From the NCBI GenBank assembly GCA_963665495.1, contig OY762289.1, positions 1,189,909-1,253,908 of the forward strand: a DNA stretch of 64,000 nt. Reading direction: 5' to 3'. Under the pieces are notes generated by a model. That model was not told where the DNA came from and did no database searches. It saw nothing but the letters and a program-made list of their open reading frames with translations. This document shows, piece after piece, positions 36,453 through 59,976 of this stretch. The position numbers and the translations under genes were made by a program. The DNA is from Desulfovibrionaceae bacterium (GTDB lineage Bacteria; Desulfobacterota; Desulfovibrionia; Desulfovibrionales; Desulfovibrionaceae). The first letter of the stretch is position 1; each line of letters begins with the position of its first letter.

Positions 36453-36530
36453 TACGCAGCCATTTCAATTCATAGCACTTATTCGGCGCATGGTTTTTTC
36501 CACGCGGCGAGTTCGGAAATACCCTATCGT

Positions 36531-37898
36531 ATGCCAGAGGTGTCCAGACAAGCTGAATTGCGGCCATGGCTCATCGCCACTGTGATATTGAGTATTGCGG
36601 CGAGCTATTATTTTCTGCACATTACGTACGTTCCGACTAATTCGGATGATGCCTGGACCACATCGTTCACCTATAATTATTTTTATCGGGGAGAACTTCA
36701 GGACACGGTCTTCGGACGTCCCGCCGGAACACTTATCTCTTTTGGTTACAGCTATGCGGTACTTCAAAAGTTGGTGTTGGATACTTTTGGCTGGACCCGT
36801 TCGAATTCGATTATACTTTCTACCTGCCTCTTTTTTTTATCGCTGCCGTTCTGGTGGCGTATCAGTCGATCTTTCGGGTGTTCGCAATCTGCTTCGCTAC
36901 TGTATGTTCTGCTTTTGCCGTTATGGGAACCGCTATTTCGTATTGCCAACACTGCCAGACCGGATTCCTGTTGTCTGTTATTTGTAAGCATTGCTCTTTT
37001 CCTTGCGCAACAGAGACGGTATGTTTTAGCGGGCGTGGCGTCCGGAATAGCCTTCGAAACGCATCAAATGGGAATTCTGGCATTTTTTCTTGTTGGTATT
37101 CATGCGTTATTTGAAATCTATTCAGACTATAAGATAAAAAAATCTTTTTATATTCTTGTAGTTAAATGGATTAGCGGTATTGGTTTAGCGGTTTGCTATT
37201 ATTTGATTTTACATCTTCATTATCTACTTGCAACACTGCATTCGGTTTCAGCAATGCACAGCTGGAACGGAAATTTTATTTTGGACTTTTTTTTCCTTAC
37301 GCGTACCTATCGTCAGATTCCCATACTTGTTTTTATCTGTCTGCTGATCGTGGCATCTGTTAAGCGGAGGTTGGTAACAGAGTTTGGGGAGCTGTATGCT
37401 ATTACCTTTGCCATCTTGCTCTTCAGCTTTGTTTTTCCTCGTCCTAACGTATATTATTCGGCCTATTTTTTTGTATTTATCGCTTTAATCACTTCGGTTG
37501 TTGTTGTTAAATATAAAAAAGCTAATCTTTTTATTGTTATTTTTCTATTGTTTGTATTGCTTCAGTATTGTTATATCTATAATAAAAATAGTTATTTTGA
37601 TATGAATAGGTTTACGATGTCCATGGAACAGGAGGTCCCCAATAGTTGTAGTACGCTTGTCGGTCCGTTCAACGCCTGGTTTGCCTTTAAGGATCGACAA
37701 TTTCTTGGATCTTTGCCAGATATGTTCCCTGCAGTTCGTAATATTCTTAAAAAACGTCCTATCTGCTACCTTCAACGTTTGGATAGCGATGATACCCGTG
37801 ATTTAATAAAAAATAACTTTGCGATGAGCCCTTTAGTTAAAGAGTTTGATGCCGGAGGGCAGCGATACGGTCTTTATTACCTGCGTGCAGATCCTTAA
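36531..37898 (+). CDS. Polytopic membrane protein (possible glycosyltransferase/ligase-like); its 3' half lies in AT-rich DNA
   Basis: 455 aa, >10 predicted TM. The first ~190 codons have typical genomic GC, while the remaining ~265 codons are strongly AT-rich. Followed by a strong terminator. Confidence 0.5.
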   Translation: MPEVSRQAELRPWLIATVILSIAASYYFLHITYVPTNSDDAWTTSFTYNYFYRGELQDTVFGRPAGTLISFGYSYAVLQKLVLDTFGWTRSNSIILSTCLFFLSLPFWWRISRSFGCSQSASLLYVLLLPLWEPLFRIANTARPDSCCLLFVSIALFLAQQRRYVLAGVASGIAFETHQMGILAFFLVGIHALFEIYSDYKIKKSFYILVVKWISGIGLAVCYYLILHLHYLLATLHSVSAMHSWNGNFILDFFFLTRTYRQIPILVFICLLIVASVKRRLVTEFGELYAITFAILLFSFVFPRPNVYYSAYFFVFIALITSVVVVKYKKANLFIVIFLLFVLLQYCYIYNKNSYFDMNRFTMSMEQEVPNSCSTLVGPFNAWFAFKDRQFLGSLPDMFPAVRNILKKRPICYLQRLDSDDTRDLIKNNFAMSPLVKEFDAGGQRYGLYYLRADP

Positions 37899-37950
37899 GA
37901 AGTCTTAGAATAAGTAAATTTTACCCAAAATATAAATTTAGTGAAGTGAA

Positions 37951-37991
37951 ATCCCAAATGCAACGTGTGTTGCATTTGGGATTTTTATTTT
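37951..37991 (+). terminator. Rho-independent terminator
   Basis: Perfect 13-bp inverted repeat TCCCAAATGCAAC-gtgt-GTTGCATTTGGGA followed by TTTTTATTTT. Confidence 0.8.
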
Positions 37992-38427
37992 GCAACTGAA
38001 ATATTGGGATAGTTATATTAAAAAATAACTTCGTAACTTCATAAGAAGATAGTGTTTAACTGTTAATTTAGAAGAGTATTTAAACTATTTGAAGAATATT
38101 TGTATTTTATAGTGAAAATACTATCATTTTTATAAATCTAAAAAAACAAATTTTTAGCGCTGGAGATGATTATTTGTTCTAGAGAAAATGTATAAAAAGA
38201 GAATTAACGTTGCCAGAATGATTTAGATCGTGTAGGATATTATTGAATTATTAAAAAATATAATTATATCAGTATTTTATGTGTAAAAATGCTTATTAGT
38301 GAATGTAGTGGCTACTTTTTTAGATATAATATTTTTTGCTTGAGATTAAAATATATCAATTAAAATCTTAACTATCCTGTAAAATTAGATTATTTTTATT
38401 CTATATTTTTTAGGTAGTAATCATAAT

Positions 38428-38634
38428 ATGGGTATTGCAGTCAAAATTAATTTTCATACCGTTTTAGGAATGGAAAATAAGAATATGCATCATTTTGGTG
38501 CGTTGAGTGTGGAGTATGCATTCTGTATGATTTTAGCGGCTATATTTCTGGAAGGGGTACTTGCATTGTTTACGGATATGTCGACAGACATACTTGGGGA
38601 GTTTATGGAGTGGATTTCAAGTCCATACCCATAA
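38428..38634 (+). CDS. Flp family type IVb prepilin (divergent); true start may be the internal ATG 38470 or 38485
   Basis: Processing-site-like motif …HHFG/ALSVEYAFCMILAAIF… (G/A-x-x-V-E-Y plus a hydrophobic helix) as in Flp/Fap pilins. AT-rich gene in the island. Confidence 0.55.
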   Translation: MGIAVKINFHTVLGMENKNMHHFGALSVEYAFCMILAAIFLEGVLALFTDMSTDILGEFMEWISSPYP

Positions 38635-38652
38635 AAAAATTGGGAGTTTGCC

Positions 38653-38910
38653 ATGAAAGAGTTTTTTCGTTCGCTTTGCGCCAGGATCTATAGTGAAATC
38701 GACTCACTGCATCAGAAGTATTATGTCAACAAACTTGGCAGCCAATCGGGCGCAACTACAGTTGAATACGCGCTTCTTATCGCCGTCATAGTTACCATGG
38801 TGATCGCAGCCGCCACCTTTATGTATGAGGATTTGAAAACATTTTTTACTAAGGTAGTTGAAAAAATAACCAACATGGCCACGGACAAAAAAGCTGATAC
38901 TGCTTTTTAA
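38653..38910 (+). CDS. Flp family type IVb prepilin
   Basis: …LGSQSG/ATTVEYALLIAVIVTMVIAAATF… is the classical Flp motif. RBS TGGGAG 6 nt upstream. Followed by a terminator hairpin. Confidence 0.75.
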   Translation: MKEFFRSLCARIYSEIDSLHQKYYVNKLGSQSGATTVEYALLIAVIVTMVIAAATFMYEDLKTFFTKVVEKITNMATDKKADTAF

Positions 38911-38931
38911 AGGCTATGCTTTTTTTACAAT

Positions 38932-38969
38932 GGAGCCTGTGTTGATACACAGGCTCTGTCAATTTTTTT
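38932..38969 (+). terminator. Rho-independent terminator/attenuator after the pilin genes
   Basis: GGAGCCTGTG-ttgata-CACAGGCTC stem-loop followed by gtcaaTTTTTTT. Sits between flp and the downstream pseudopilin genes. Confidence 0.65.
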
Positions 38970-39084
38970 GTTGTAGTAGAAAAATTAACAATATTCTGTT
39001 TGTAATTACTATTATTTATATGTGAAATAAAAATAAATTTTTACGATGATTACAAAAAATTTTACCGCCTATTTTAGTTAGATA

Positions 39085-39477
39085 ATGAGTAATAAAAGAC
39101 AAAATTCTAAATATGAATCAGGCGCAACAACTGTTGAATTTGCCTTTGCCATGATTTGGGTTTTTTTCTTTTTCATAGCCTACTATCAGATTATTGAGAT
39201 TTTTTTAGTGCACGAACGCGTCTCGTACGCGACTTTTATCGCTTCCCGAGCACATCAGGTGCATGGTGATGCATCCACGGCTGCTGGTGCCGTATTGAAC
39301 GAATATGAAATTAAAACCCGTAAAAAATCCGTTACAATAAGCAAAACCATTCGCGTTCCTATTGATTTCAAAAATCCATTTGACGGTAATGATTTCAGAA
39401 CCGGCGGCGCCAGATTCGAGGTGGCGGAAACGGTTCCCACGTTTTCCGAACCGGGCGAAGGGTCTGGAGATAACTGA
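39085..39477 (+). CDS. TadE-like pseudopilin
   Basis: N-terminus …KYESG/ATTVEFAFAMIWVFFFF… matches the TadE/TadF-type prepilin-like N-terminal domain. Confidence 0.65.
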   Translation: MSNKRQNSKYESGATTVEFAFAMIWVFFFFIAYYQIIEIFLVHERVSYATFIASRAHQVHGDASTAAGAVLNEYEIKTRKKSVTISKTIRVPIDFKNPFDGNDFRTGGARFEVAETVPTFSEPGEGSGDN

Positions 39478-39478
39478 A

Positions 39479-40390
39479 ATGATTCCGCGGGACACGACCA
39501 CAGAGCGTCAGAACGCACAATGCGGATCCGTCACCGTTCTGGTGGTTTTTCTGCTGCCGGTTATGTGCATCATGCTGATGCTGATGGTGAACATCGGCCA
39601 GGCTGTTTTTGAAAAAATTCGTCTGCAGCAGACCGTGGATATGTGTGCGTTGTCCGCAGCGAATGTTCAGGCCATGGGGCTGAATGAGATAGCGGACCTG
39701 AACTTCGAGGCTGAATTTCAATATTGGTCAATGGCCCTGCAGCATGCGATTCCATTCTGGGCGTCGTTTTCGGATGGCAAAAATTGTACGGATTTTTTTA
39801 AAGATGTTTTTAAGGAAATTCTGGAAAAACAGGACGATGCCAATAGTGATTATGCTGAGGCGGCTTTGGACATTGCGGAGTACGTAAAAATGATCAATTT
39901 GCCAATGACCACTCTTGAGTCGGTAAATCCGGAAGATTCCAAGCTGATGAAATATAAAAAGGTAAGTCGTTTCTATTTCTTTTTATTTCTCTCCGAGTGT
40001 TCCTGTAAGTATTGCCCAAGCTTAACGTCCTTTACCTGGAATGGTAACATGGCTGGAAAAGCAGAAAAGTGGGGACTACATTTTGGTAAACAATCTGAAG
40101 GAACTAAGTGTTCAGTTTCAATCCCCATGTTTGGCAGCATAGACTATAAAATCAAGAAAAAGAAAAATCCGACAACATATTCTGCATTCAAAATAACCCA
40201 GCGCCCTAAACGATTTATTCTTGCTTCAGGTATTTTTGGAAAGCTCGATGAACTTGTGGCCTATGCTGCAGCCAAGCCTGTTGGTGGTTCCATCTACAAC
40301 GGAAAACCACAATATAAGGGTGTTCTGTGGCGGCTCAATGATCTTGAGCCAGCGCCAGATGTCGATGACCTCAGCGAGTTTGAGCATTAA
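39479..40390 (+). CDS. TadG-like protein (putative Flp pilus-assembly TadE/G-like N-terminal domain)
   Basis: …ERQNAQCGSVTVLVVFLLPVMCIMLMLMVNIGQAVFEKIRLQQTVDMCALSAA… fits the TadE/G-like N-terminal pattern (…ALxLPxLL…VD…R…LQxAAD…AA). The start 39479 abuts the previous stop. The 3' half is AT-rich. Confidence 0.6.
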   Translation: MIPRDTTTERQNAQCGSVTVLVVFLLPVMCIMLMLMVNIGQAVFEKIRLQQTVDMCALSAANVQAMGLNEIADLNFEAEFQYWSMALQHAIPFWASFSDGKNCTDFFKDVFKEILEKQDDANSDYAEAALDIAEYVKMINLPMTTLESVNPEDSKLMKYKKVSRFYFFLFLSECSCKYCPSLTSFTWNGNMAGKAEKWGLHFGKQSEGTKCSVSIPMFGSIDYKIKKKKNPTTYSAFKITQRPKRFILASGIFGKLDELVAYAAAKPVGGSIYNGKPQYKGVLWRLNDLEPAPDVDDLSEFEH

Positions 40391-40391
40391 C

Positions 40392-40805
40392 ATGTTGCAG
40401 TGCAAAACGATGGATAAATTTGTTTCCAAAAGAGTGGAACGATCAAAAAGCAGTGAAAGCGGCCAGATGATGATAGAGTTTGGTTTTATGCTCTTCATGA
40501 TGCTCGCGCCTATGCTGGTTACTCTTCTTGTTTTCTATGAGGTTATCAATGAACTCATTACCGTTCAGGAGCAGATTTATTACGACCTGCGTGAAAAAAT
40601 TGACGACAGGGCTGCCGGCCCCTTTTTTCCGGTTTACAAAAAAGAGACCGCACGGGTGGAACTGCCAGTCAAAATGCATGGATTTATCGGCGTTGACAAA
40701 GTGGAGGTTGATTTGGAGCTCAGAGCCTTTGCCGGTTGTTGGCAAGGGAACAATTTGAATAGCTATAAATTGGGAAGACGGTTGCGAACAACAGGGATGG
40801 AGTGA
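40392..40805 (+). CDS. TadE-like pseudopilin (second copy)
   Basis: …KSSESG/QMMIEFGFMLFMMLAPMLVTLLVFY… prepilin-like N-terminus. The start (40392 or 40410) is ambiguous. Confidence 0.55.
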   Translation: MLQCKTMDKFVSKRVERSKSSESGQMMIEFGFMLFMMLAPMLVTLLVFYEVINELITVQEQIYYDLREKIDDRAAGPFFPVYKKETARVELPVKMHGFIGVDKVEVDLELRAFAGCWQGNNLNSYKLGRRLRTTGME

Positions 40806-40807
40806 AT

Positions 40808-41671
40808 ATGAAGGGGAGCAGAGTACTGGTCATTTCGCTGGTGGGAGCGCTAATCGCCCTGATGCTGGTCTACGGCTACATCTCCAGCAGGGAAAAAGCC
40901 CTGATGCGCGGAGAGACTCCCATCAAGGTTGTGGTGGCGTTGCGGGACATCCCGGAAGATACGCGTCTGGACGACACCATGGTGGAAGTGCGCGAAGTGC
41001 CCAAGGCCTTTGTGCAGCCTGGCGCGGTGTCCGACGTCACGGACGTCTACGACCGGGTGCTGCAGATAGGAGTGATGTCCGGAGCGCAGATTCTTGAAGA
41101 CATGGTTCGTCCCAGTGAAGGCGAAACCCTTGCTAAGAAGATTCCCAGCGGCATGCGCGCCGTGAGCATTTCCGCCAACGAAGTGACGGCGGTTGCCGGT
41201 TTGATTCAGCCGGGGAACTTTGTGGACGTGCTGCTGACCGTGGAAACCGGCGTTTATGACGAGCGAGGTGTCATGCAGCCCGAGCAGACCATCACAAAAA
41301 CCGTGCTGCAGAATATTCTGGTGCTCGCCGCCAATCAATTTTCATCCAAACGGGATTATCAACGCTCGAAATTCAAAAATACGCAGAAAGTTCCGGGGAC
41401 GTACTATTCCGTACCTTCCGCCAAAGGGGAGGGCGGCAATCAGCTGCGGACATTGACTCTGGCACTGAGTCCTGAAGATGCGCAAAAGATCACTCTGGCG
41501 CAGGAAGTGGGGTCCGTGACCGTGGCGCTACGCAGTTCGTGGTCCGAAGATAAAAGCGTGTCCTTGCCGTTTTTATCCGCAAATCAGCTTATGGGCGTGG
41601 ACAAAAAGATCATGCGCAGATCAATGCCCTCCTGGGTGGAAATTCGCGGATCGCAGATGGTCAACCCCTGA
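40808..41671 (+). CDS. cpaB: Flp pilus assembly protein CpaB/RcpC
   Basis: N-terminal TM, SAF-like domain then RcpC region (…IKVVVALRDIPEDTRLDDTMVEVREVPKAFVQPGAVSD… …GNFVDVLLT…). Confidence 0.8.
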   Translation: MKGSRVLVISLVGALIALMLVYGYISSREKALMRGETPIKVVVALRDIPEDTRLDDTMVEVREVPKAFVQPGAVSDVTDVYDRVLQIGVMSGAQILEDMVRPSEGETLAKKIPSGMRAVSISANEVTAVAGLIQPGNFVDVLLTVETGVYDERGVMQPEQTITKTVLQNILVLAANQFSSKRDYQRSKFKNTQKVPGTYYSVPSAKGEGGNQLRTLTLALSPEDAQKITLAQEVGSVTVALRSSWSEDKSVSLPFLSANQLMGVDKKIMRRSMPSWVEIRGSQMVNP

Positions 41672-41797
41672 GGCCGAACGACAGATATTTTTCACACTGG
41701 ATCGGAAATTCAGGCTTCAAGCCGAAGCCATCGGTACAAGCGGCGGAGCGAGCCGGTTCGGCGGATTCGCTCCAGTAATTCATAAGGGAGACAGGTG

Positions 41798-43300
41798 ATG
41801 CATCGTTCCAAGGGTAGTGGTGTGGCAAGGGTTCTCGCCGTACTTATGCTGGTTCTTTTACTGCCGGTGGCGGCATTCACGCAGAAACCGCCGGACGATG
41901 TCGTCAAAGTCATGGCAGGCAACAGCGTGGTTTATGCCGTGGACTTCAAGATCGAAAAGGTGGCCACCGGCGATCCCAAAGTCTTCGGCGTTGTGCAGAC
42001 CGGCGACAATGAAATGATCATCAATGCTGTTGCCGAGGGTGCGAGCAATCTGATTATTTTCGGCCCTAACGACGAACGCAGGGAAGTGTTCATCAACGTG
42101 CTGACTCCCGAGTTGATGCTCAAAGCCGAAGAACTCCGGGGCATGCTTTCGGATATCGAAGGCGTTGAAGTCAAGATCATCGGCAAGAAAATCATTGTCG
42201 ACGGCCTGGTTTTCAAGAGCAAGGATTTCGGCAAGATCAATCAGCTTCTTGCCAGTATGCCTGAGGTGGTCAACCTCGTACGCATGAGCCCGTTCATGAA
42301 AAAGATCGTGGCCCAGGAGATCGAACGCAGCATCGGGCGTCCGGGCATCACCGTTCGCGTCGCCAAAAACGCCTTTTTGATTGAAGGCGTGGTCCCCAAC
42401 GAAGAAGAAGGACAGCGCGCGGAAAAGATCGCCCTGGCCTACAGCCCCAACGTGGTCAACGCGCTGCTCAGCACCGCCTCGCAGGAACGGCCCGCACCCT
42501 ATTCCAAGCCGAATATCATCGAAGTCAATTTGACTATCATGGAAGTGACCAAGACCGCGTTGAAACAGTTCGGCATCTATTGGAACCCAACCATCTCGAC
42601 CACTGGCAACGCCGGATTCGACCATGAAAGCAACTTCGAGTGGTTCCCTTTCAGCACGTCCATGGCGGAAAATCTGGTCTACAGCCTCTCCGGTACCATT
42701 TCCTCCTTTTTCCCCACCATGCAGCGAATCAATGAAACCGGCAACGGGCGTTCGTTGATGCAGCAGACTCTGATTACCAAGGAGGGCGGGGCGGCCAAAT
42801 TCTTTGCAGGATCCGAAGAGCCCATCCCCGTGGCTCAGGACGGCGGGACCATGTCCGTGGAGTACAAGAAAGTGGGTATGACGCTTAATGTGACGCCCAA
42901 CCTGGACGAACTTGGGAATATCGACTCCATGCTGGAGATGGAGTCCAGCACAGTGACGGGCACCAGCAGCGGTGCGCCCATCGTGAATACCAACAGCGTC
43001 ACCACCGCCATCAATGTGGCTCAGGGCACCACCATCGTCATCGGCGGTCTGGCAGGGCAGCGCGAGCTGAAAAATCTGGCCAACAGCAACCCCAACGACG
43101 AGGGTACCGGAAGCCTGTTTGAAGCCAACTACGACAAAGCGCGCCAGAAAAGCCAGACCGAAGTCGTGGTCTTCATCACGCCGCGTATTGTGGAAGACGC
43201 TAAAGATGCCGGCAAAGACATGAAAGTCAACACCAAGCGCTCGATCAAAAAAGTGGAACTCGACAACCTGCGCGAAGTGTTTGACGGCTATTACAAATAA
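41798..43300 (+). CDS. cpaC: Tad/Cpa secretin CpaC/RcpA (type II/III secretion-system secretin family)
   Basis: Signal peptide. N-terminal β-domains and C-terminal secretin domain (…GTTIVIGGLAGQRELKNLAN… …VVVFITPRIVED…). RBS AAGGGAG 7 nt before ATG 41798. Confidence 0.85.
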   Translation: MHRSKGSGVARVLAVLMLVLLLPVAAFTQKPPDDVVKVMAGNSVVYAVDFKIEKVATGDPKVFGVVQTGDNEMIINAVAEGASNLIIFGPNDERREVFINVLTPELMLKAEELRGMLSDIEGVEVKIIGKKIIVDGLVFKSKDFGKINQLLASMPEVVNLVRMSPFMKKIVAQEIERSIGRPGITVRVAKNAFLIEGVVPNEEEGQRAEKIALAYSPNVVNALLSTASQERPAPYSKPNIIEVNLTIMEVTKTALKQFGIYWNPTISTTGNAGFDHESNFEWFPFSTSMAENLVYSLSGTISSFFPTMQRINETGNGRSLMQQTLITKEGGAAKFFAGSEEPIPVAQDGGTMSVEYKKVGMTLNVTPNLDELGNIDSMLEMESSTVTGTSSGAPIVNTNSVTTAINVAQGTTIVIGGLAGQRELKNLANSNPNDEGTGSLFEANYDKARQKSQTEVVVFITPRIVEDAKDAGKDMKVNTKRSIKKVELDNLREVFDGYYK

Positions 43301-43323: not shown

Positions 43324-45399
43324 ATGGGGAGAATGCTTAGCGTCTATGCCACCAAGGGTGGCGTCGGCAAAAGCTTTTTGGCAGTGAACCTGGCGGTAAA
43401 CCTGCATTTGGAAACCAGGGAAAATGTGCTGCTCGTTGATTTCGGCCAGCCTTTTTCCATTGATGTGGCAACGTATCTGGAACTCAAAAAGGTCAATACA
43501 CTGGACAAGATGCTCCCGACTGCCATGAAGCTGAATCCGGCAATACTGAAAAGTTTTGTCACCCGCCACGATTCGGGCGTGGATGTCCTGAGCCTGAGCC
43601 AGAGTCTTGCCCCGCTGGGGCCGGAAGTCCTTTCCGCCGGGAATCTGGAGGCCGTGCTCGGCAAGCTCATGCCTTCCTACGGCTGGCTCGTGGCAGATGT
43701 GGGCATGGCCTATGGTCCGGCCGTGGATACGTTGCTTGAGGTCTCGGACCTGGTGATGCTTGTCTGCGAACCCTCAATTCTCGGACTGAAGCATACGTTT
43801 CAGGATCTGGCGTTTCTGCAGGCCCAGAATTTTCCTCAGGAAAAGATCAAGCTGGTCCTGAACAGAGACGGCCTGAATGAAAGCATTTCTGCTGAACTGG
43901 TGCAACAGCGGACCAACAAGGAGGTTTTTGGTTCTCTGCCCAACGATCCGCAGGCCGAACAGAAGCTGGCCGACGGAAAGCTCTATGCCAGGGATTTTCA
44001 CCGTCATGAAGTCACCAAGGCGCTGGACGCCCTGACCGCGCAGGTCGTCCGGAGCGCAGGCGCAATGCAGAACCGCTTGAGCGTGCCCTCTGTCGGGTCC
44101 GAGGAGCAGACCGCCGAACCGGATATCGACGTACTGAAGATGGGCATCCATCAGCGGTTGCTGGAAACTTTTGATATGAAGTACGCGGATTTTGAGGTGG
44201 AAAACGATCCGGAGAAATACAGGGAGCTGGAAGAAGACGTCACCCGCCGGATCGTTGAATTGCTGGATGCGGAATCCCGCATCGCTTCCCGTCAGCGCCG
44301 GGCTGAAATCGTGAAGGAAATCAAGCAGGATGTGCTGGGACTCGGGCCGTTGGAGGACATGCTGGATGATGCGGATGTCAGCGAGATCATGATCAACCGC
44401 TGGGATCAGATTTATGTGGAGCAGAAAGGGCGTCTGAGCGTGAGCCCCAAGAAATTTCACAACGAGCAACACCTGATGCGGGTCATCGAGCGTATCGTGG
44501 CACCGCTGGGCAGGAAAATCGACACCAGTACGCCCATGGTCGACGCCCGGCTCAAGGACGGTTCGCGCGTCAATGCCATCATCCCTCCGCTGGCAATCAA
44601 CGGCGCGGCCATGACCATCCGCAAGTTTCCCAAACACCGGCTGGGTGTGGATGATCTCATCAAATACAATACGCTGAACCGGCAGATAGCTGAATTCATT
44701 CAGGCTGCTGTCAAAGCCCGTTTGAACGTGCTTGTTTCCGGCGGTACGGGTTCGGGAAAAACGACTCTGCTGAATATTCTTTCCGCTTTTATTCCTTCGG
44801 ACGAACGGATCATCACGGTGGAGGATTCGGCCGAGCTGAAGCTGCAGCAGCCCCATGTGGTCACACTGGAATCCAGGCCGCCCAATATCGAGGGCACGGG
44901 CGAGGTTTCCATCAGGGATCTGGTCAAGAATACGCTGCGTATGCGGCCCGACAGAATAGTGGTGGGCGAATGTCGCGGAGCGGAAGCCCTGGATATGCTT
45001 CAGGCCATGAATACGGGGCACGACGGCTCTTTGACCACGGTGCATGCCAATACGTCCCGCGAAGCCATTGCGCGGCTGGAAACGCTGGTCATGTTCGCGG
45101 GGTTCGATCTTTCCCCCAAGGCGATCAAAGAGCAGATCGTGGGCGCGGTGGATCTGATCATCCAGATCAAACGCTTCAAGGATGGAAGCAGACACATCGT
45201 TCAGGTTTCCGAGATTACCGGCATGGAAGGCGATGTGGTCACCATGGGGGATGTTTTCGAGTTCAAGGTATCCGGTACGGATGCCCAGGGGATCGTGCAG
45301 GGGACTTTTGTCTCCACCGGCTACGTGCCCCATTGCCTGAAGGCTTTTGAGGAAAAAGGCATTTCCATACCGAGGGAAATTTTCTGGACGGCGGATTAA
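43324..45399 (+). CDS. Fused TadZ/CpaE-like (ParA/MinD-type) ATPase plus TadA/CpaF secretion ATPase
   Basis: Residues 1-~260: deviant Walker A SVYATKGGVGKSFLAVNLA (MinD/ParA class), no N-terminal receiver-like domain. Residues ~280-691: CpaF-type ATPase (Walker A GGTGSGKTTLLN, …RIVVGECRGAEALDMLQAMNTGHDGSLTTVHANT…). Single uninterrupted ORF. Confidence 0.85.
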   Translation: MGRMLSVYATKGGVGKSFLAVNLAVNLHLETRENVLLVDFGQPFSIDVATYLELKKVNTLDKMLPTAMKLNPAILKSFVTRHDSGVDVLSLSQSLAPLGPEVLSAGNLEAVLGKLMPSYGWLVADVGMAYGPAVDTLLEVSDLVMLVCEPSILGLKHTFQDLAFLQAQNFPQEKIKLVLNRDGLNESISAELVQQRTNKEVFGSLPNDPQAEQKLADGKLYARDFHRHEVTKALDALTAQVVRSAGAMQNRLSVPSVGSEEQTAEPDIDVLKMGIHQRLLETFDMKYADFEVENDPEKYRELEEDVTRRIVELLDAESRIASRQRRAEIVKEIKQDVLGLGPLEDMLDDADVSEIMINRWDQIYVEQKGRLSVSPKKFHNEQHLMRVIERIVAPLGRKIDTSTPMVDARLKDGSRVNAIIPPLAINGAAMTIRKFPKHRLGVDDLIKYNTLNRQIAEFIQAAVKARLNVLVSGGTGSGKTTLLNILSAFIPSDERIITVEDSAELKLQQPHVVTLESRPPNIEGTGEVSIRDLVKNTLRMRPDRIVVGECRGAEALDMLQAMNTGHDGSLTTVHANTSREAIARLETLVMFAGFDLSPKAIKEQIVGAVDLIIQIKRFKDGSRHIVQVSEITGMEGDVVTMGDVFEFKVSGTDAQGIVQGTFVSTGYVPHCLKAFEEKGISIPREIFWTAD

Positions 45400-45427
45400 G
45401 CTGAGGAAGGAAGCGCTTGTGGATAAC

Positions 45428-46663
45428 ATGATGGTATACCTGCTGACGGCCTGTTTTTTGCCGCCGTTCTGGGGCATCTGCTACTGGCTGGCGCAGCTAG
45501 TGCTGGGAGACCGCAAAAAGGACGGGCATGGCAGCTCGTTCGGGCGGTATGTCTCCTGGATCAGTAATACGCTGGACCAGATGTTCTACCAGGTGCCTGA
45601 AAAGAAAATCCGCACTTTTCTGCTGGCGTCCATGCTTGTGGCTGGACTTGCCGGGTTCCTGTTGCCGTCTTCTTTGTCCGGCATCAGCAAGAATTCTCTG
45701 CATACGGCCATGGAGCTGAACCGTAAGGGGCACTACAAGGAAGCGCGGAACGCTTTGCTTGGCTACGAATCGTCGAAATCGCCTCTGATTCTGAACGAAC
45801 TGGGTGTCGCCTTTCTGGGTATGGGAGATTACGACGAGGCCATGGACTATTTCCGGGCGGCGCTCTCCATGCAGCCTTACTACGGCGTGGCCCATGCCAA
45901 TCTGGCAACGGCCTACCTGCACAAGGAAAATCTCGAACGCTGGCGTTTCGAGCGGGCCCGTTCCATAGAAGTGGGCAAATATCCTCTTTCCACCTCCGAA
46001 ATATATAACCTGGAAACATCCATCGTCAGCCAGCTGTTACTGCGTCTGTTCGTGGCCGCGATATTCATGCTGGCCGTCTACAACCTGCCCCGGCTGATCA
46101 TCCGGGTTTTGCGTTCACGCAGGATCAAACGCTACGAAGAACAGATGCCCGACGCTTTGTTGATGGCGTCCAACGGGTTGAAGGCCGGATTCAGTCTGAT
46201 GCAGGCCCTGGAGGTGGTGGCCTCGGAAATGACGCCTCCTTTGAGCCAGGAGTTCCGTCTGGTGCTCAAGGAGCATCAGCTTGGCTCGGAATTGGATGAA
46301 GCTCTCGAACATCTGGCCCAGCGAATGCCTACTTTAGATACGCGTATTTTTGTCAATTCACTCGCCATATTGCGTGAAACCGGCGGTAATCTGACGGAAA
46401 TATTCGACACCATGGCCGAGACCATCAAAGAGCGTAAACGCGTTCTGCAGAAAATCAAAACCATGACAGCCGAAGGAGAAACGCAGGCGTATATTCTTTC
46501 GGCCCTGCCCCTGGTCCTGGGGTTGATCATGTACAAACTCAATCCGGAAAATATGGAGCTGATGTTCGGCACGCCCCTGGGATGGATGATCGTGCTGCTG
46601 GTCGTTTTGCTGGAAGCCGTGGGGATTTTCTGGATGTTGAAAATGGTCAAAGTAAAAGTATAG
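45428..46663 (+). CDS. TadB-like platform protein (T2SSF domain) with an N-terminal TM plus TPR-repeat extension
   Basis: TPR-like repeats (…NELGVAFLGMGDYDEAMDYFRAALSMQPYYGVAHANLATAYLH…) precede a T2SSF domain (…MPDALLMASNGLKAGFSLMQALEVVA… …ETQAYILSALPLVLGL…). An alternative GTG start at 45419 is possible. Confidence 0.75.
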   Translation: MMVYLLTACFLPPFWGICYWLAQLVLGDRKKDGHGSSFGRYVSWISNTLDQMFYQVPEKKIRTFLLASMLVAGLAGFLLPSSLSGISKNSLHTAMELNRKGHYKEARNALLGYESSKSPLILNELGVAFLGMGDYDEAMDYFRAALSMQPYYGVAHANLATAYLHKENLERWRFERARSIEVGKYPLSTSEIYNLETSIVSQLLLRLFVAAIFMLAVYNLPRLIIRVLRSRRIKRYEEQMPDALLMASNGLKAGFSLMQALEVVASEMTPPLSQEFRLVLKEHQLGSELDEALEHLAQRMPTLDTRIFVNSLAILRETGGNLTEIFDTMAETIKERKRVLQKIKTMTAEGETQAYILSALPLVLGLIMYKLNPENMELMFGTPLGWMIVLLVVLLEAVGIFWMLKMVKVKV

Positions 46664-46731: not shown

Positions 46732-47280
46732 ATGGGCTTGCGCGCGCGTCTTGTACTACTGCTTTTTCTTTTTGCCTTGCCGTTGACCACATCATGTTCG
46801 ATGCGCCCCAAAGTGGAAGGGGTGCTTCCCAAAGGCATCGTTCAGGTGGACAAGAACAATTACAACGCCATGGTCTTACGAAGCAAAGGCCCCTGCATGG
46901 TGTTGTTCTATGACGAAGGCATCGAATCCACCGCGTTGCACCGCCTTTACATCGCGTATGCCGACCGCTACGGCAAACACGCCAAATTCTGCCGCTACCA
47001 GTGGGACGGTACCGATAACCCCGGCGATTACCGCCTCGAGGTCCGGCCCACCATCATTTTGTACCGCGACGGCATTGAAGTGGACCGTCTGCGCGGCATT
47101 CCCCCGCGTACGCCCGATTATGTGGACTGGAACGAGGACGTGGAACTCTGGATCCTGCGTACCGCCATTCAGGTAAAAAGCGACAAATACACGGCCACCT
47201 TCAATTGTTTCTTTAACAACACCTATGACCTGGAGTTCACCAATCTGGGCATGGACGATAAACGGGATGTCGAGGATTAG
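46732..47280 (+). CDS. Lipoprotein with a thioredoxin-like fold lacking the CxxC active site
   Basis: Signal peptide + lipobox (LPLTTSC). …CMVLFYDEGIEST… …RPTIILYRDGIEVDRLRG… has thioredoxin-fold topology without redox cysteines. RBS AAGGAG. Confidence 0.55.
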   Translation: MGLRARLVLLLFLFALPLTTSCSMRPKVEGVLPKGIVQVDKNNYNAMVLRSKGPCMVLFYDEGIESTALHRLYIAYADRYGKHAKFCRYQWDGTDNPGDYRLEVRPTIILYRDGIEVDRLRGIPPRTPDYVDWNEDVELWILRTAIQVKSDKYTATFNCFFNNTYDLEFTNLGMDDKRDVED

Positions 47281-47487
47281 ATACTGAGAAGGTATGCTTC
47301 AGGCTGTGTAAGCCCCTGTGTTGTAAAAGAGGACTGAGAATCTCTAACGACTTTAAAGCGTTAGTGAAGACAACAGCTATACAGAGCAATTTGAGCGCGT
47401 CCAGGGCCGCTGCCCTGGCGAGGGGTGTGGGGACGAGGAGCCCCCGCGGTGTTTTCTAATTTTTCAGCTGATCGGGGGAGTCCTGCA

Positions 47488-49209
47488 ATGAACGACGCAC
47501 TTGCCGCCATGAATCAGAAGCTGTTGCGCGCGTTCGAGCTGCGCGGGCTTGTGCCTGCGGGCATGCCGCCGCCAAAGGATCAGCTGCTGTCTGACCTGCT
47601 GGTCAAGACCGGACGCGTCAGCCCGTCCGACGTCAACCAGGTGCTGGAAGAGGTCACGGGGTGTCAGTCCGTGGATCCGACCATGGTTTCCTTCACGCCC
47701 GAATATCTGACTCATGCGCAGGCGCTGATCCCCAAGGCCATCGCTGTAGAAGAAGCCGTATTCCCCATCCGGCACGAACAGAATTTCGTCCACCTGGTTA
47801 TGAGCCGCCCGGAAGATACGCGCTGCCTCAAACGTATGGAATTCCTCACCGGATCGCGGATCAAGCCCTACGCCTGCCACACGGGCCGGATTCTTGAAGC
47901 GCTGGAAACACACTACAGCCCGGATGAAAACTGGCCGGACCCTGAGGCACACAACGAGCAGGCTCTGCTGGACCGCGCGACCAAGGCCGTGAATCTGCTC
48001 AAGGCCAACCTCGCTCCATTGGACGATGTGATCATCAACGTCCATGTCATCAAATTGCTGCGCTATGTTCTCAACGAACTGGTGGACCGTGGATCCAGCG
48101 ATCTGCATTTCGAGCCTCTGGAAGACTGCTACCGTATCCGCTACCGCAAGGACGGCGTGATGGTCACGGCCTGGCGTTTTCCCAATCTGATCAAGGAGGC
48201 GCTGACCGCGCGGTTGAAATTGCTGTCCGGTCTGAAGCTGGACATCACCAGGGCGCCCCAGGACGGCAGCATTGCTTACCACATCATTGAAAACCGCGAG
48301 ATAGACGTACGCGTCAGCACCTTGCCGTCATTGTACGGTGAAAAAATAGTCTTGCGCGTTTTGGATAAAAGCGCCGACCGTCTGAAACTTTCCGACCTGG
48401 GGCTGGAGAAGTGCGACGAAGATCTGTTGTTCGCTTCCATTCGCCGACCCAACGGGTTGTTGCTGGTCACCGGTCCGACAGGCAGCGGAAAGTCCACCAC
48501 GCTGTACGCGGCGTTGACCGAAATGAACAGCGACGAGGTGAATATCGTCACCGCCGAAGATCCGGTGGAGTACAAACTCAACGGTTTGACGCAGGTAAAC
48601 TGTTCGGCCGAGGAGGGCACCAGCTTCAATGCCGTGATCCGTTCTTTCTTACGCCAGGATCCGGACATCATCATGGTGGGCGAAATACGCGACGCCGAGA
48701 CAGCCGATTTTGCGGTAAAGGCCGCCATGACCGGCCACCTCGTGCTTTCCACTTTGCATACCAATGATGCGCCCAGCGCCATCAACCGTCTGGTGAATAT
48801 GGGCCTGCCGCCGTTTCTGGTGGCCTCCGCGCAGATTACCGTAGTGGCGCAGCGCCTTGTCCGCAGGATCTGCGGTAACTGTAAAAGCGCGTATACGCCC
48901 TCGGAAGAAGATCTGCTGCGCGTGCCCGAACTGGCGTCGGAAGCCGCCGACGGGTCTTTGACATTTTTTCGGGGAGACGGTTGCGAACATTGCGCCGGCA
49001 CCGGATATTCCGGACGCGTGGGGGTGTATGAAATTATGCTGGTTACCGACCGGCTGGAAGAAATGATTTTGAATCAGGAATCCTCAGGCGCGCTCAAAAA
49101 CGCCGCGGTGGAGGGAGGAATGCGCCCGCTGCGGCAGGCCGCTTACGATAAACTGCGCCAGGGCGTAACCACCCTGGATGAGGTGTTGCGCGTCACTTTG
49201 GACGCCTGA
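47488..49209 (+). CDS. GspE/PilB-type secretion ATPase with a T2SS-E N-terminal (MshEN-like) domain
   Basis: N-terminal ~190 aa GspE_N-like. Walker A LVTGPTGSGKSTTL, Asp box, Walker B DPDIIMVGEIRD, His box TGHLVLSTLHTNDA. Tetracysteine CGNC…CEHC. RBS GGGGAG 5 nt before ATG 47488. Confidence 0.85.
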   Translation: MNDALAAMNQKLLRAFELRGLVPAGMPPPKDQLLSDLLVKTGRVSPSDVNQVLEEVTGCQSVDPTMVSFTPEYLTHAQALIPKAIAVEEAVFPIRHEQNFVHLVMSRPEDTRCLKRMEFLTGSRIKPYACHTGRILEALETHYSPDENWPDPEAHNEQALLDRATKAVNLLKANLAPLDDVIINVHVIKLLRYVLNELVDRGSSDLHFEPLEDCYRIRYRKDGVMVTAWRFPNLIKEALTARLKLLSGLKLDITRAPQDGSIAYHIIENREIDVRVSTLPSLYGEKIVLRVLDKSADRLKLSDLGLEKCDEDLLFASIRRPNGLLLVTGPTGSGKSTTLYAALTEMNSDEVNIVTAEDPVEYKLNGLTQVNCSAEEGTSFNAVIRSFLRQDPDIIMVGEIRDAETADFAVKAAMTGHLVLSTLHTNDAPSAINRLVNMGLPPFLVASAQITVVAQRLVRRICGNCKSAYTPSEEDLLRVPELASEAADGSLTFFRGDGCEHCAGTGYSGRVGVYEIMLVTDRLEEMILNQESSGALKNAAVEGGMRPLRQAAYDKLRQGVTTLDEVLRVTLDA

Positions 49210-49252
49210 GTAGGGATCTCGCAAAACTGTGTTGCTCTACAAGGAGCGGGGT

Positions 49253-50131
49253 ATGGACCTAGCATTGAAAGCAGGCGGATTGTTGTTGCTGTTTCTCAGC
49301 ATATTCGCGTTTTTGTACGCGCTGTTGCCTGGAGAAAAAGAACAGAAGGCCCGCAAGCAATTTGAAGAAGAGGCTGCGCCTGGCGAATCCACGGGCTTCA
49401 TCAATTTGTTTCGCCCGTTCTTCACTTTTTTTAAACCATTGGCCGTGCGGCTGGCCTGGCCAGGCTATCAACGGCGGATTCAGAAAATGCTGGTCAATGC
49501 GGGGCTGGACCGCGAGCTGAATGTCAGTGATTTTGTCGCCTTTCAATTCCTGTTGCTGGTGCTTTTCGTGCTGATGGGCCTGGTGTTGTGGTATAGCCTT
49601 GGGGCCGCGATTTTCGTGGGGATGCTCGGGCTTGGCTATCCGTATTTCTGGTTGTGGGACAAGAAACGCAATCGTCAGCGGGACATTGCTTTGTCCATGC
49701 CCGACGTGGTGGATATGCTTTCGCTCTCGGTGGAAGCCGGCCTGGATCTGCTGGCGGGCATCAAGCGGATTTGCGATGTGAATGCCACTGCCAGGGATCC
49801 GTTTATTCAGGAACTCGGCTACATGTACCACAACATCAAACTGGGCATGAGCACGGAAGAGGCTTTGAACTCCATGGCCGAGCGGGTGGATGTTCAGGAT
49901 GTCTATTCGTTCACGTCCATTTTGATTCAGGCCCAGAAAATGGGCTCCAGCATCTCGCAGGTACTGAAATCCCAGGCCGTACGAATGCGGCAGCAGCGCT
50001 TCATGAAAGCGGAGCGTGTCGGCGCCGTGGCTTCGCAAAAGCTGCTGATTCCAATGATGCTCTGTATTTTTCCCGTGTTGTTTATTGTGATTTTTGCCCC
50101 GTATTTACTCAAATATATCTATGGCCAATAG
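49253..50131 (+). CDS. tadC: TadC-like platform protein (T2SSF domain)
   Basis: …LSMPDVVDMLSLSVEAGLDLLAGIKRI… …SFTSILIQAQKMGSSISQVLKSQA… T2SSF signatures. RBS AAGGAG 6 nt before ATG 49253. Confidence 0.8.
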   Translation: MDLALKAGGLLLLFLSIFAFLYALLPGEKEQKARKQFEEEAAPGESTGFINLFRPFFTFFKPLAVRLAWPGYQRRIQKMLVNAGLDRELNVSDFVAFQFLLLVLFVLMGLVLWYSLGAAIFVGMLGLGYPYFWLWDKKRNRQRDIALSMPDVVDMLSLSVEAGLDLLAGIKRICDVNATARDPFIQELGYMYHNIKLGMSTEEALNSMAERVDVQDVYSFTSILIQAQKMGSSISQVLKSQAVRMRQQRFMKAERVGAVASQKLLIPMMLCIFPVLFIVIFAPYLLKYIYGQ

Positions 50132-50140
50132 GTGCGGCGC

Positions 50141-51784
50141 ATGAAATGCAGCCTCGAGATACGCAAAGGTGCGGAAACCGTGCTTTCCCGTGAGCTTGTT
50201 CCCGGAGAGTACGCCGTTGGTAGAAAAGACGGAAATGACATTGTGCTTGCCGACAAAAGTATTTCCGGAAAACACGCGGTAATTACTGTCAGCAAGAAAA
50301 AAGTCGTTATTACCGATCCCGGAAGCCGTAACGGCGTTTTGCTTCAGGGGAAACGGATCAAAAAACAGTCCTTTGCCAAGGATTTTTCCGTGCAGCTCGG
50401 ACCTTTTTTGCTGCACTTTGCTCTGGGAGCTGCGGATGCCGGACAACAAACCAGTAAAACCAAAGAGGCCAAAAAGGCCGTACAGGCCTCGAAAAGCCTG
50501 TTCGCCTCGCTTAATCCACGGGTTCTGGTCTGCTGCGTTGTGTTTTGTTTCGCGCTGTTCATGGCAGTGGTTTATTACGCGCCCCTCAAGGCTGCTTTGG
50601 AATCCGGGCGCGAACGCGAGGCTTTGGCGCGCGGCTTTCTCCTGGCCCGCTATCTGGGCGCCGTGAATCAGCTTCCGTTGGAAGAAAAACGCATGGATGT
50701 TCTGCGTACGGATCCGAGCAACACGGAAGAGGGCGTACGCTATGCCTACGTCGTTGACCCCTACGGAAAGGTCCTGGCCCCTGCCCAGGAAATGGGCAAG
50801 TTTCTGAAGCTGCGCAAGATCGACAAGGCTCTGGCGGATCCGAAGTTGCGCGCCTGGGACGGCGATGACGGCGAGCAGATCATTTTTTACCCCATCAAGG
50901 AATTCGACAAGCTGCTGGGTGCGGCCATCATCGGCTATGACCTGGAACGCGCCGTTGCCGTGCAGGGGAGCGGATACGGAGGCACAGCGGCGATGCTGTT
51001 TCTTGTTTCTCTGTTCGTCGCCGGACTGTGCTGTTTCGTGCTGCTACGCGGACTTCTTTCCCCCTTGCGGGCGCTGGCGGAAGATGCGGGCGTCAGCCTG
51101 AAGCAGCGGCAGGACCATGTGGGGTTCAAGGCAGCGTACGCCGAATTGCAGGCTCTGGTGGAAGCCATAAACAGAATGCTTTTGCTGATTGCCAAAACAG
51201 CGGACGCTGTGCCGCCAGTCAGACACGAGGAGACAGCTCCCCCCGCTACTCCTTCGGAAGAACAACCCCCTCCGGATGAAGCTGAATCTCCGCTTGATAT
51301 GGATGCCACAATTATCTCCGACAAAGCACCTGAAAGCTCTGCGCCGCGCGAGTCTGCGGCACCAGAGTTTGTACAAAGTCTGTCGGAGGCTGCGGATATT
51401 GCAGATGCCGGCCCGGCCGGCGATTCCATTGATTTGAGCAGGGAACCGGCCCCTGAAACAGGTGGGGCCGCGAACGTGGGTACGGACATCGGTTCCGTGG
51501 AACTGCCCGCCTGCCACATTGATCTGCAGCTGTATACCATCGTGTCGTTCAATACGGCATTTTGCAGCTTTTTTCCTGTCGGCGAGAAAAAGGAAGGCAT
51601 GCATATGCTCGAGGCGTTTCCTGATCCCGAATTGATCAGCGCTATTTCCACGTTGATTGATGATGCGCAGCTCGAGGCGGAGTCCGTGGTCAGGGGCGAA
51701 CGCGTAATGTGCGTACGCAAGGAAGTCTTGCCGGGGGGCGCATGGACCGCCTTGTTTACTTTTAAGGAGACTGCAGATGGCTGA
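50141..51784 (+). CDS. FHA domain membrane protein: FHA - TM - Cache-like periplasmic domain - TM - HAMP-like region - acidic/Pro-rich linker - C-terminal domain
   Basis: N-terminal FHA (…GRKDGNDIVLADKSISGKHAVI… …GSRNGVLLQG…). TM about aa 130-150. Periplasmic segment with Cache-like …YAYVVDPYGKVLA… …GAAIIGYD… TM about aa 285-310. Begins 1-10 nt after the tadC stop. Confidence 0.75.
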   Translation: MKCSLEIRKGAETVLSRELVPGEYAVGRKDGNDIVLADKSISGKHAVITVSKKKVVITDPGSRNGVLLQGKRIKKQSFAKDFSVQLGPFLLHFALGAADAGQQTSKTKEAKKAVQASKSLFASLNPRVLVCCVVFCFALFMAVVYYAPLKAALESGREREALARGFLLARYLGAVNQLPLEEKRMDVLRTDPSNTEEGVRYAYVVDPYGKVLAPAQEMGKFLKLRKIDKALADPKLRAWDGDDGEQIIFYPIKEFDKLLGAAIIGYDLERAVAVQGSGYGGTAAMLFLVSLFVAGLCCFVLLRGLLSPLRALAEDAGVSLKQRQDHVGFKAAYAELQALVEAINRMLLLIAKTADAVPPVRHEETAPPATPSEEQPPPDEAESPLDMDATIISDKAPESSAPRESAAPEFVQSLSEAADIADAGPAGDSIDLSREPAPETGGAANVGTDIGSVELPACHIDLQLYTIVSFNTAFCSFFPVGEKKEGMHMLEAFPDPELISAISTLIDDAQLEAESVVRGERVMCVRKEVLPGGAWTALFTFKETADG

Positions 51785-52796
51785 TGCCTTTTCCGAAACC
51801 GTCGTCGAGGAAACACCGGGAACGATGACTCTGAAGGTGATTCAAGGCAAAGGCGAAGGGAAAAAATACGCGTTGGCAGAGGGTCGGGGCATGGTCATCG
51901 GCCGGATGCAGGATAGCGATATTCACATTGACCCCGCTGACAAGCTGGCGTCTCGCCACCACGCCCGGATAACGCGTCAGGGAGATGCGGCCCTGCTGGA
52001 AGACCTGGGGAGTGGCAACGGCACTTTTGTGGGGGATGAAAAAATTTCGCAACAGTCATTGCAGCCGGGGGCAGTATTCCGAATCGGCGGCACGACCTTT
52101 GTGCTCGAACTCCAGAGTCCGCAGGAAGCGACCAATGTCACCATGTATCTGGACTCCGAAAAACCAGTCAAAAAAGGCGGCAGCAAAGTCAGGGTGATTT
52201 TGCTGGGGGCGCTGCTGGTCTGCATGCTGGGCGTGCTTTTCATCCTGTTTTCCGGAGACAAGGATCCGGAAAAGGCCGAACAGCAGGTGGAACCGCCGTT
52301 GAAGCAGACGGAGCAGGCCGTACCGGCTGCGGTTCCGACTCCGGCAGCCCAGCCCGCCGGACCAGAACCCGCCGGACCAGAGCCTGCGGCTGCAAAGCAA
52401 GTTGAAACAGAGGCTCCCCAAGAAGCGTCGCCGGACAAGGCTGGCTCTGACGTTTCTGAAATCAGCGGCACGCAAAAAAAAGAGTCGCAGGATCATTTTC
52501 GCCAGGGGAGATTTTTTTATAACACGGGCAATCTGGAAAAGGCCGTGGACGAATGGGATCAGGCCTACAAATTGGATCCGGACAATCAGGCGGCCAAAAA
52601 ATGGCTGCTGCGAGCGGAACAGGAACTGGACGAGCAGATAGACACCCATTACCGGCTCGGATTGAAAGCGAAAAAGTATATGCGCTATACCGACGCGTGC
52701 AATGAATTCAAACTGGTCGTGAAGTGGAGTCGTGACAAAGAGGACGAGCGTTATCTGGACGCGTTGAAGCAACTAGAAGAGTTGAAGGATAAATGA
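51777..52796 (+). CDS. FHA domain membrane protein with a Pro/Ala-rich linker and TPR-like C-terminus
   Basis: FHA (…GRMQDSDIHIDPADKLASRHHARI… …GSGNGTFV…). TM (…VILLGALLVCMLGVLFILF…). RBS AAGGAGA 6 nt before ATG. The start overlaps the upstream stop (ATGGCTGA). Confidence 0.8.
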   Translation: MADAFSETVVEETPGTMTLKVIQGKGEGKKYALAEGRGMVIGRMQDSDIHIDPADKLASRHHARITRQGDAALLEDLGSGNGTFVGDEKISQQSLQPGAVFRIGGTTFVLELQSPQEATNVTMYLDSEKPVKKGGSKVRVILLGALLVCMLGVLFILFSGDKDPEKAEQQVEPPLKQTEQAVPAAVPTPAAQPAGPEPAGPEPAAAKQVETEAPQEASPDKAGSDVSEISGTQKKESQDHFRQGRFFYNTGNLEKAVDEWDQAYKLDPDNQAAKKWLLRAEQELDEQIDTHYRLGLKAKKYMRYTDACNEFKLVVKWSRDKEDERYLDALKQLEELKDK

Positions 52797-52798
52797 TC

Positions 52799-59633: not shown

Positions 59634-59976
59634 AGGGACTCCTTGTTTTAGGGATGCGCCGGCTGGTTGGATTTTTATTGAATCGAAGCGAAAGGTACCA
59701 GATCGGCTGTTAAAAAACCAGAGCGGGAACATGTCGTTACTGCTGTCCGGCCGGCGAATTCAGTTTAGCAAAATGGCAGGAGAGGAGGATACATTAATGG
59801 GAATTTATTACCAGTGATCTTGTGAAACCCAGGCGATCAGTATAATTCTAACCTGGGTCCTTCTTCTTGTGTTTTGGAGCGTGAGAACGGAAAACCGTGC
59901 GGGATGCAAGGACCCATTTTGACGATTCTGTGACTTTTTGGATTGGCCGGACGAATCGCGCTTGGATGGTGCTTTT

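Follow-up and report, generated by a model that had tools for sequence, protein, structure and literature searches.

The fused gene and its domains

A Flp/Tad pilus operon was identified in a 64,000-nucleotide stretch (the window) of contig OY762289.1 from a Desulfovibrionaceae bacterium, and within it a single open reading frame (ORF), here called tadZA, was found to encode a fusion of a TadZ/CpaE-type ATPase domain to a TadA/CpaF motor ATPase. The gene occupies positions 43324-45399 of the forward strand, on which all the parts described here also lie, and runs from an ATG start to a stop codon at 45397-45399. Its product has 691 amino acids (aa), and the translation of its 691 codons contained zero internal stops. 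The N-terminal ATPase domain (N-domain), of the ParA/MinD fold, comprises aa 1-253 (43324-44082), has no receiver-like domain before it and carries the deviant Walker A motif KGGVGKS at aa 11-17 (43354-43374), in which K11 is the signature Lys and K16 the P-loop Lys. It is followed by a disordered, hypervariable linker, aa 254-266 (44083-44121), delimited from a structural model and alignments, and then by the TadA/CpaF N-terminal helical bundle, aa 267-338 (44122-44337), with predicted helices at aa 268-282, 285-292, 296-317 and 323-338. The remainder, aa 339-691 (44338-45396), was assigned with Pfam T2SSE to the N-terminal and C-terminal ATPase domains of TadA/CpaF. This part holds the TadA Walker A motif GGTGSGKTT (aa 473-481; 44740-44766), the Walker B/catalytic Glu segment RPDRIVVGECRG (44944-44979) and the His box TGHDGSLTTVHAN (aa 564-576; 45013-45051).

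The AlphaFold2 model, which was built with a 77-sequence alignment and had a mean pLDDT (predicted local distance difference test) score of 85.8, exhibited a confident MinD-like domain at aa 1-253, and the score fell below 50 in the linker (aa 253-266). In homologue alignments the linker contained insertions and deletions and its sequence was not conserved; the equivalents of H228 and K272 were 38 to 56 aa apart across the 77 TadZA homologues. The end of the N-domain leads into this polar, disordered segment, where a hydrophobic-moment scan was unremarkable (maximum of 0.50). A C-terminal amphipathic membrane-targeting helix is predicted for Caulobacter CpaE; the closest unfused relative of the N-domain (P0283, described below) was, like TadZA, without a clear helix. 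At the other end of the domain, the TadZA start lies 23 nucleotides past the stop codon of the upstream secretin gene and the first beta-strand of the model begins at residue 3, and therefore there is no space for a receiver-like domain. A 567-codon antisense ORF (43774-45477, reverse strand) overlaps nearly the whole TadA part of the gene; it is most likely a codon-usage by-product of the opposite strand, with no sign of being a gene.

Authenticity and conservation of the fusion

We considered whether neighboring tadZ and tadA genes had been merged by a sequencing or assembly error, either a frameshift or the loss of a stop codon. The protein was recovered from two independent assemblies, the 6.3-Mb NCBI contig and an ENA metagenome contig (L001, ERZ21831251 ctg12504l). 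The ENA copy lends the artifact some credence in that neighboring genes are broken there by indel errors, the PilB-like gene into 410 and 159 aa and tadB into 316 and 64 aa, all of them whole in the window. These breaks are probably long-read indel errors, and the L001 calls for the neighboring genes are probably untrustworthy. In that same error-prone assembly, however, TadZA was intact and identical. More than 100 clusters (90% identity) of 686-714 aa covered 99-100% of TadZA at 47-100% identity, and a profile built from remoter fused proteins added over 110 clusters with the fusion, most of them from Omnitrophota. In all, the fusion is represented in >220 clusters, which come from many different sources and were obtained with many sequencing technologies. 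Both motif sets were present in the 228 proteins of 682-760 aa that were fetched. When the junction DNA was aligned with that of the two closest species-representative genomes, the Desulfovibrionaceae metagenome-assembled genomes L016 and L004, zero indels were observed at 87% mean identity, and among the 77 homologues the length of the linker changed by whole codons. A frameshift artifact was ruled out by the conservation of the fusion together with the indel-free junction alignment, and we regard its probability as negligible. The TadZ-TadA fusion gene is genuine and strongly conserved.

An internal start at M273 (ATG at 44149), which would yield a separate TadA, was also considered. It was not supported by the sequence, where no suitably spaced Shine-Dalgarno-like motif was found and the sole GAGGAG was located about 42 nucleotides upstream.

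The C-terminal TadA/CpaF half

Pfam T2SSE matched aa 339-614 of TadZA with an E value of 4.7e-61. The NCBIfam TadA-family model TIGR03819, which describes a TadA subgroup associated with conjugal transfer, matched aa 313-628 with an E value of 2e-100 and a score of 336 bits, under its cut-off of 373, and no model specific to CpaF gave a match in the NCBIfam search of TadZA. A phmmer search of the PDB aligned solved Caulobacter CpaF (8rkd and 9e24) to aa 272-667 with E values of about 1e-117, the aligned residues of 9e24 being 86-475. Foldseek comparison with the CpaF structures 9e24, 8rjf and 8rkd returned E values of about 1e-46, identities of 44-45% and target-normalized template modeling (TM) scores of 0.76-0.83. 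The key residues of the TadA Walker A motif, the Walker B/catalytic Glu segment and the His box were invariant in the 77 homologues. As judged from sequence and model, aa 267-691 (425 residues) is a complete TadA/CpaF motor, with every catalytic motif and a predicted fold that superposes on solved CpaF.

Identity of the N-domain

The Pfam matches of the N-domain included CbiA at aa 6-219 (E value of 4.9e-11) and AAA_31 at aa 3-156 (E value of 1.3e-8), and the CbiA/AAA_31/ParA region (aa 3-219) did not overlap the T2SSE region. The NCBIfam model CpaE_hom_Actino (TIGR03815) aligned aa 2-238 to profile positions 111-337 of 340, corresponding to its ATPase half only. In the PDB search, aa 4-222 were matched by 3ea0, a ParA-family ATPase of 245 aa from Chlorobium tepidum which, unlike TadZA, is a stand-alone protein. 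The profile E values for the N-domain were 4.7e-39 for 3ea0, 2e-25 for MinD, 4e-23 for FleN and 1.3e-4 for the TadZ structure 3fkq.

To identify relatives of the N-domain, residues 1-262 were searched exhaustively with phmmer against 1.84 billion representatives. The matches outside TadZA's own family were of two types. The first comprised fused representatives of 684-745 aa, whose architecture was verified by Pfam, and the second comprised proteins of 375-440 aa that aligned at residues ~140-385, carried Response_reg and MinD-like domains and, among those given a name by a source, were most commonly called "pilus assembly protein CpaE" (JGI). The best unfused match, P0283, with 35% identity, is encoded in a locus with the order Flp, TadV, TadE, TadG, RcpC, secretin, a receiver plus ParA protein of 395 aa, a T2SSE protein of 457 aa, TadB and TadC. 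The tad operon of the window has this order with the two middle genes merged into one. TadZA is the sole tadA and the sole tadZ of its operon and holds both slots, with the secretin gene upstream and tadB downstream, and its KGGVGKS was the only ParA-type Walker A motif within a ParA-like gene in the window.

Because its nearest unfused relatives are of this kind and because of its position in the secretin-to-tadB slot, the N-domain is best read as the TadZ/CpaE ATPase domain. We also considered that a generic ATPase domain of the MinD/FleN type had joined TadA independently, in which case the label "TadZ" would be mere analogy. This we judge very improbable. The best unfused relatives among the representatives searched have the receiver plus ATPase layout and the name CpaE, P0283 takes the place of tadZ in a canonical operon, and no separate tadZ was found in the window or in the related fused loci. 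Moreover, since tadZ and tadA are normally adjacent, a simple fusion of the two is the parsimonious explanation.

Residues G12, G13, G15, N22, D39, D125, N180 and P206 of the N-domain were invariant in a 22-sequence alignment; in the 77-sequence alignment G15, N22, D39, D125 and N180 were still invariant, and G12, G13 and P206 were at least 90% conserved. A census of the Walker A motif in the 228 fused homologues gave K or R at the signature Lys11 position in 225. Both the census and the KGGVGKS of TadZA agree with the published TadZ consensus K/RGGxGxS/T (Tesseur, Denise, Santin, and Laloux; bioRxiv 10.64898/2026.07.08.737194).

These results bear out most of a preliminary description of this locus, which had been made from the letters and the ORF list. 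Its single uninterrupted frame of 691 codons agreed with the ORF list and the stop-free translation, and the halves that it had recognized by KGGVGKS (ParA/MinD) and GGTGSGKTT (complete CpaF ATPase) were upheld by the Pfam, NCBIfam, PDB profile and CpaF structure matches given above. The missing N-terminal receiver-like domain was confirmed by the short gap to the secretin gene and the early first strand. It had further proposed that profile alignment would define the domain boundary and that orthologous loci of relatives might carry the same fusion; the alignments and the model placed the ParA half at aa 1-253, the linker at 254-266 and TadA at 267-691, and the fusion was recovered in the clusters described above as well as in 25 genes of the genome scan.

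Distribution and origin of the fusion

The genome scan covered one genome per species and returned 80 loci; its search patterns, [STP]KGG[VT]GK[ST]F, bias this sample to KGGVGK-type proteins. Fused genes accounted for 25 of the 80 loci, encoding proteins of 687-728 aa with no more than 14 residues ahead of the ParA domain, and belonged to Desulfobacterota families (15), Omnitrophota (7) and Planctomycetales (3). The receiver-like domain was missing from all 25. The other 55 loci, from Bacillota, Actinomycetota, Dethiobacteria and a single genome of Desulfovibrionaceae, encoded unfused TadZ proteins 342-430 aa long, in which an N-terminal extension of 100-188 residues precedes the ParA domain. 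The fusion was also present in a named Vicinamibacteria (Acidobacteriota) protein, and among the new clusters from the profile search with distant fused proteins none was named Bdellovibrio. The TadZA fusion has a far wider distribution than published work would suggest, being common across several phyla in anaerobic and uncultured lineages.

In neighbor-joining trees the fused proteins formed one clade, both for the TadA part and for the N-domain, the N-domain clade having a bootstrap of 15/30 and unfused TadA of diderm bacteria being unsampled. The mean identity between the two fused groups was 27.8%, no higher than that between fused and unfused proteins (26-32%).

Five longer proteins of 792-998 aa (P0011, P0029, P0084, P0099 and P0403), which scored very highly against TadZA queries, each contained two T2SSE stretches. 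For these five, inspected among the matches of 783-998 aa, a receiver-TadZ-TadA fusion was ruled out, as they are tandem TadA-TadA proteins. These proteins, found in the database and outside the window, represent another covalent modification of the Tad motor.

The tad operon and its neighborhood

The genes around tadZA lie on the forward strand unless stated otherwise. There are two small genes for Flp-type pilins (38428-38634 and 38653-38910), both conserved in related loci, of which the second matched Pfam Flp_Fap (E value of 1.4e-9). They lie in a region, ~36000-40000, in which the GC content falls to 36-42% upstream of and across the pilin genes, compared with ~55% elsewhere; this low-GC stretch also contains a 455-aa ORF (36531-37898) without a Pfam match. 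The region 39085-40805 comprises orf130, a TadG-like gene with a Tad/TadE domain and one other conserved ORF, which were assigned from a Pfam Tad match (E value of 8e-11), the L001 gene calls and synteny, and whose start codons are uncertain. The next genes are cpaB/rcpC at 40802-41671 (Pfam RcpC, E value of 2.7e-28; NCBIfam pilus_cpaB, 170 bits against a cut-off of 71) and the secretin gene cpaC/rcpA at 41795-43300 (Pfam Secretin and T2SS-T3SS_pil_N), which directly precedes tadZA.

For the genes downstream, a canonical tad locus with separate TadZ and TadA (L002) served as the BLASTP reference for tadB and tadC. The tadB orthologue at 45419-46663 (Pfam T2SSF and TPR) was 36% identical to TadB of the reference locus (E value of 1.7e-41). 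Its product has a TPR segment inserted at approximately aa 100-175, before T2SSF, and this insertion was retained in all 15 of the Desulfobacterota fused loci. Following it is a gene for a small putative lipoprotein (46732-47280), whose hydrophobic N-terminal leader terminates in LTTSC and which matched the thioredoxin fold weakly (E value of 4.5e-3). Matches to its region in L004, L005 and L016 came from a tblastn query whose translation was shifted by one base, so that conservation of this gene is tentative. Also between tadB and tadC lies the gene for a second ATPase of the PilB/GspE type (47425-49209; Pfam T2SSE, E value of 4.4e-120, and MshEN). This ATPase contains a tetra-Cys motif and scored 553 bits with NCBIfam type_IV_pilB, under the cut-off of that model. 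The tadC orthologue (49229-50131; Pfam T2SSF) aligned over nearly its full length with the reference TadC at 28% identity (E value of 4.7e-35). Directly downstream of tadC, the region 50132-54265 encodes three FHA-domain proteins (Pfam FHA and Yop-YscD_cpl), two of which also contain TPR. The operon is flanked by genes for a Ser/Thr protein kinase (54379-56061, reverse strand), convergent with it, and for a Cache-HAMP-PP2C (SpoIIE) phosphatase (57594-59732, reverse strand). A TadV/Peptidase_A24 prepilin peptidase was not detectable in the window, the best E value in a tblastn search with TadV of a canonical locus being 1.9.

The order TadZA-TadB-lipoprotein-PilB-like-TadC-FHA was found again in about 10 related loci of Desulfobacterota. 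One bifunctional ATPase is the arrangement described for Tad systems. A conserved gene for a PilB-type motor inside the tadB/tadC platform pair is unusual and, as far as gene order can indicate, hints at a Tad system with two ATPases. We consider this ATPase more unusual than the fusion itself, its membership in the same machine being putative.

Interpretation of the fused protein

From the sequence and the model, the ORF very probably encodes a TadZA-type protein, that is, the sole TadA/CpaF motor of its Flp/Tad operon, bearing a TadZ/CpaE-type ATPase on an N-terminal tether of about 14 residues. The solved structures call for a caveat, in that the N-domain is nearer to 3ea0, MinD and FleN than to 3fkq, which is the single solved TadZ and comes from a Firmicute. 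Two observations weigh against this interpretation. In the Walker A census, 24 of the 228 fused proteins had A, Q or T in place of the P-loop Lys16 and another 18 had R; because of the 24 with A, Q or T, the family may be able to do without ATP hydrolysis by this domain. The gene cluster also encodes a PilB-type ATPase, and TadZA may not be the sole motor.

The canonical systems of Caulobacter and Aggregatibacter, of which L002 is an example, share with the window both activities, the order secretin-tadZ-tadA-tadB and the ATPase folds. They differ in having TadZ and TadA as two proteins, where the window has one polypeptide without a receiver-like domain. For Caulobacter, six CpaE dimers surrounding the CpaF hexamer have been fitted into in situ maps, the receiver domains have been modeled as bridges between the CpaE dimers, and AlphaFold 3 predicts a contact between CpaE and CpaF (PMC13170226). 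The modeled ratio there is 12 CpaE to 6 CpaF, in contrast to the fixed 1:1 ratio in TadZA. Caulobacter CpaF has about 85 N-terminal residues (in 9e24_A) before the aligned region, whereas TadZA has the TadZ domain and linker at this place.

A closer counterpart is the TadZA of Bdellovibrio bacteriovorus, which consists of a TadZ region without the atypical receiver domain, a flexible linker and TadA (bioRxiv 10.64898/2026.07.08.737194). The window protein, compared with it through the published description, likewise joins a receiver-less TadZ, a linker and TadA in one chain. The Bdellovibrio tadZA gene could not be deleted and is essential, its repression stops predation, and its TadZ plus linker binds the polarity hub RomR, on which the localization of TadZA depends (bioRxiv 10.64898/2026.07.08.737194). 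The tad loci of B. bacteriovorus are without TadV, and Flp is processed there by PilD. The main Bdellovibrio tad locus thus resembles the window in the absence of TadV, and also in having tadC apart from tadB and FHA and TPR proteins nearby. The window differs in that its tadC belongs to the same cluster, parted from tadB by the lipoprotein and PilB-type ATPase genes, and in that its host, a Desulfovibrionaceae bacterium, is not known as a predator.

We propose that the TadA part of the protein would hexamerize beneath the TadB/TadC platform and, like CpaF, drive the extension and possibly also the retraction of the pilus. In place of the free CpaE ring there would be six TadZ domains, held to the motor by their tethers in a 1:1 ratio, and these could form three ATP-sandwich dimers at most. 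Such dimers would fit the N-domain because Lys11 (as K or R), D39, D125 and N180 are conserved, and the retention of Lys11 even where Lys16 is not retained suggests that nucleotide-dependent dimerization weighs more than hydrolysis. The fusion would hard-wire the TadZ-TadA contact or recruitment that separate proteins must make. The localization role of the lost receiver would presumably fall to a different partner, one binding to the TadZ domain and linker, by analogy with RomR in Bdellovibrio.

The retention of Lys11, in pointing to dimerization over hydrolysis, would equally suit a different role, in which the N-domain has no part in positioning and acts as an ATP-gated clamp or regulator, for example by dimerizing between neighboring TadA protomers and so gating either the assembly of the hexamer or its change between extending and retracting. 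The 1:1 stoichiometry and the short disordered tether would favor such a device, and so would the fact that all fused genes have lost the receiver-like domain, the module proposed to direct localization. On the other hand, the RomR-dependent localization of the Bdellovibrio protein through its TadZ plus linker shows that positioning persists in at least one fused protein. We therefore regard a purely regulatory N-domain as possible but doubtful; a variant in which it is mainly a regulator is compatible with the data, and regulatory and positioning roles can coexist.

Novelty and significance

The identification of a TadZ-TadA fusion stands; the novelty that the preliminary description had implied does not. 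Its view of TadZ and TadA as separate proteins in described Tad systems is outdated, because the receiver-less TadZA has already been described in Bdellovibrio, in a preprint that calls the fusion atypical and cites an earlier prediction of it (bioRxiv 10.64898/2026.07.08.737194). The window gene itself adds nothing beyond this known TadZA design. What is new is that the fusion is common over several phyla and receiver-less in every fused gene of the scan. In Caulobacter, CpaE has been placed around CpaF solely by map fitting and AlphaFold prediction; since the entire machine is lost in cpaE mutants, direct evidence for its position is lacking. A covalent fusion conserved across phyla provides independent support, of the Rosetta-stone type, for a direct functional contact between TadZ and TadA, and suggests that the receiver-like domain is expendable once this contact is hard-wired.

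Extending this further, TadZA might define a widespread subclass of Tad systems (Desulfobacterota, Omnitrophota, Planctomycetota, Acidobacteriota and Bdellovibrionota) with a tethered TadZ in place of the free CpaE ring, which in Desulfobacterota may be paired with a PilB-type ATPase under the control of FHA proteins and a Ser/Thr kinase. Taken as a whole this proposal is speculative, and we think it rather unlikely to hold in full; if true, bacteria not known as predators would possess a Kil-like Tad system with two motors. KilF of Myxococcus xanthus (PMC8460266) is similar in being a TadA-family motor with an extra N-terminal regulatory domain, encoded in an FHA-rich locus, and different in that the extra domain is FHA and not a TadZ ATPase. 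The Kil system has been reported only from predatory Myxococcales, Bdellovibrionales and Bradymonadales (PMC8460266). The signaling genes of the window, encoding three FHA proteins, a Ser/Thr kinase and a PP2C phosphatase, resemble the contexts of Kil and of the Bdellovibrio Tad system, which have been reported only in predators.

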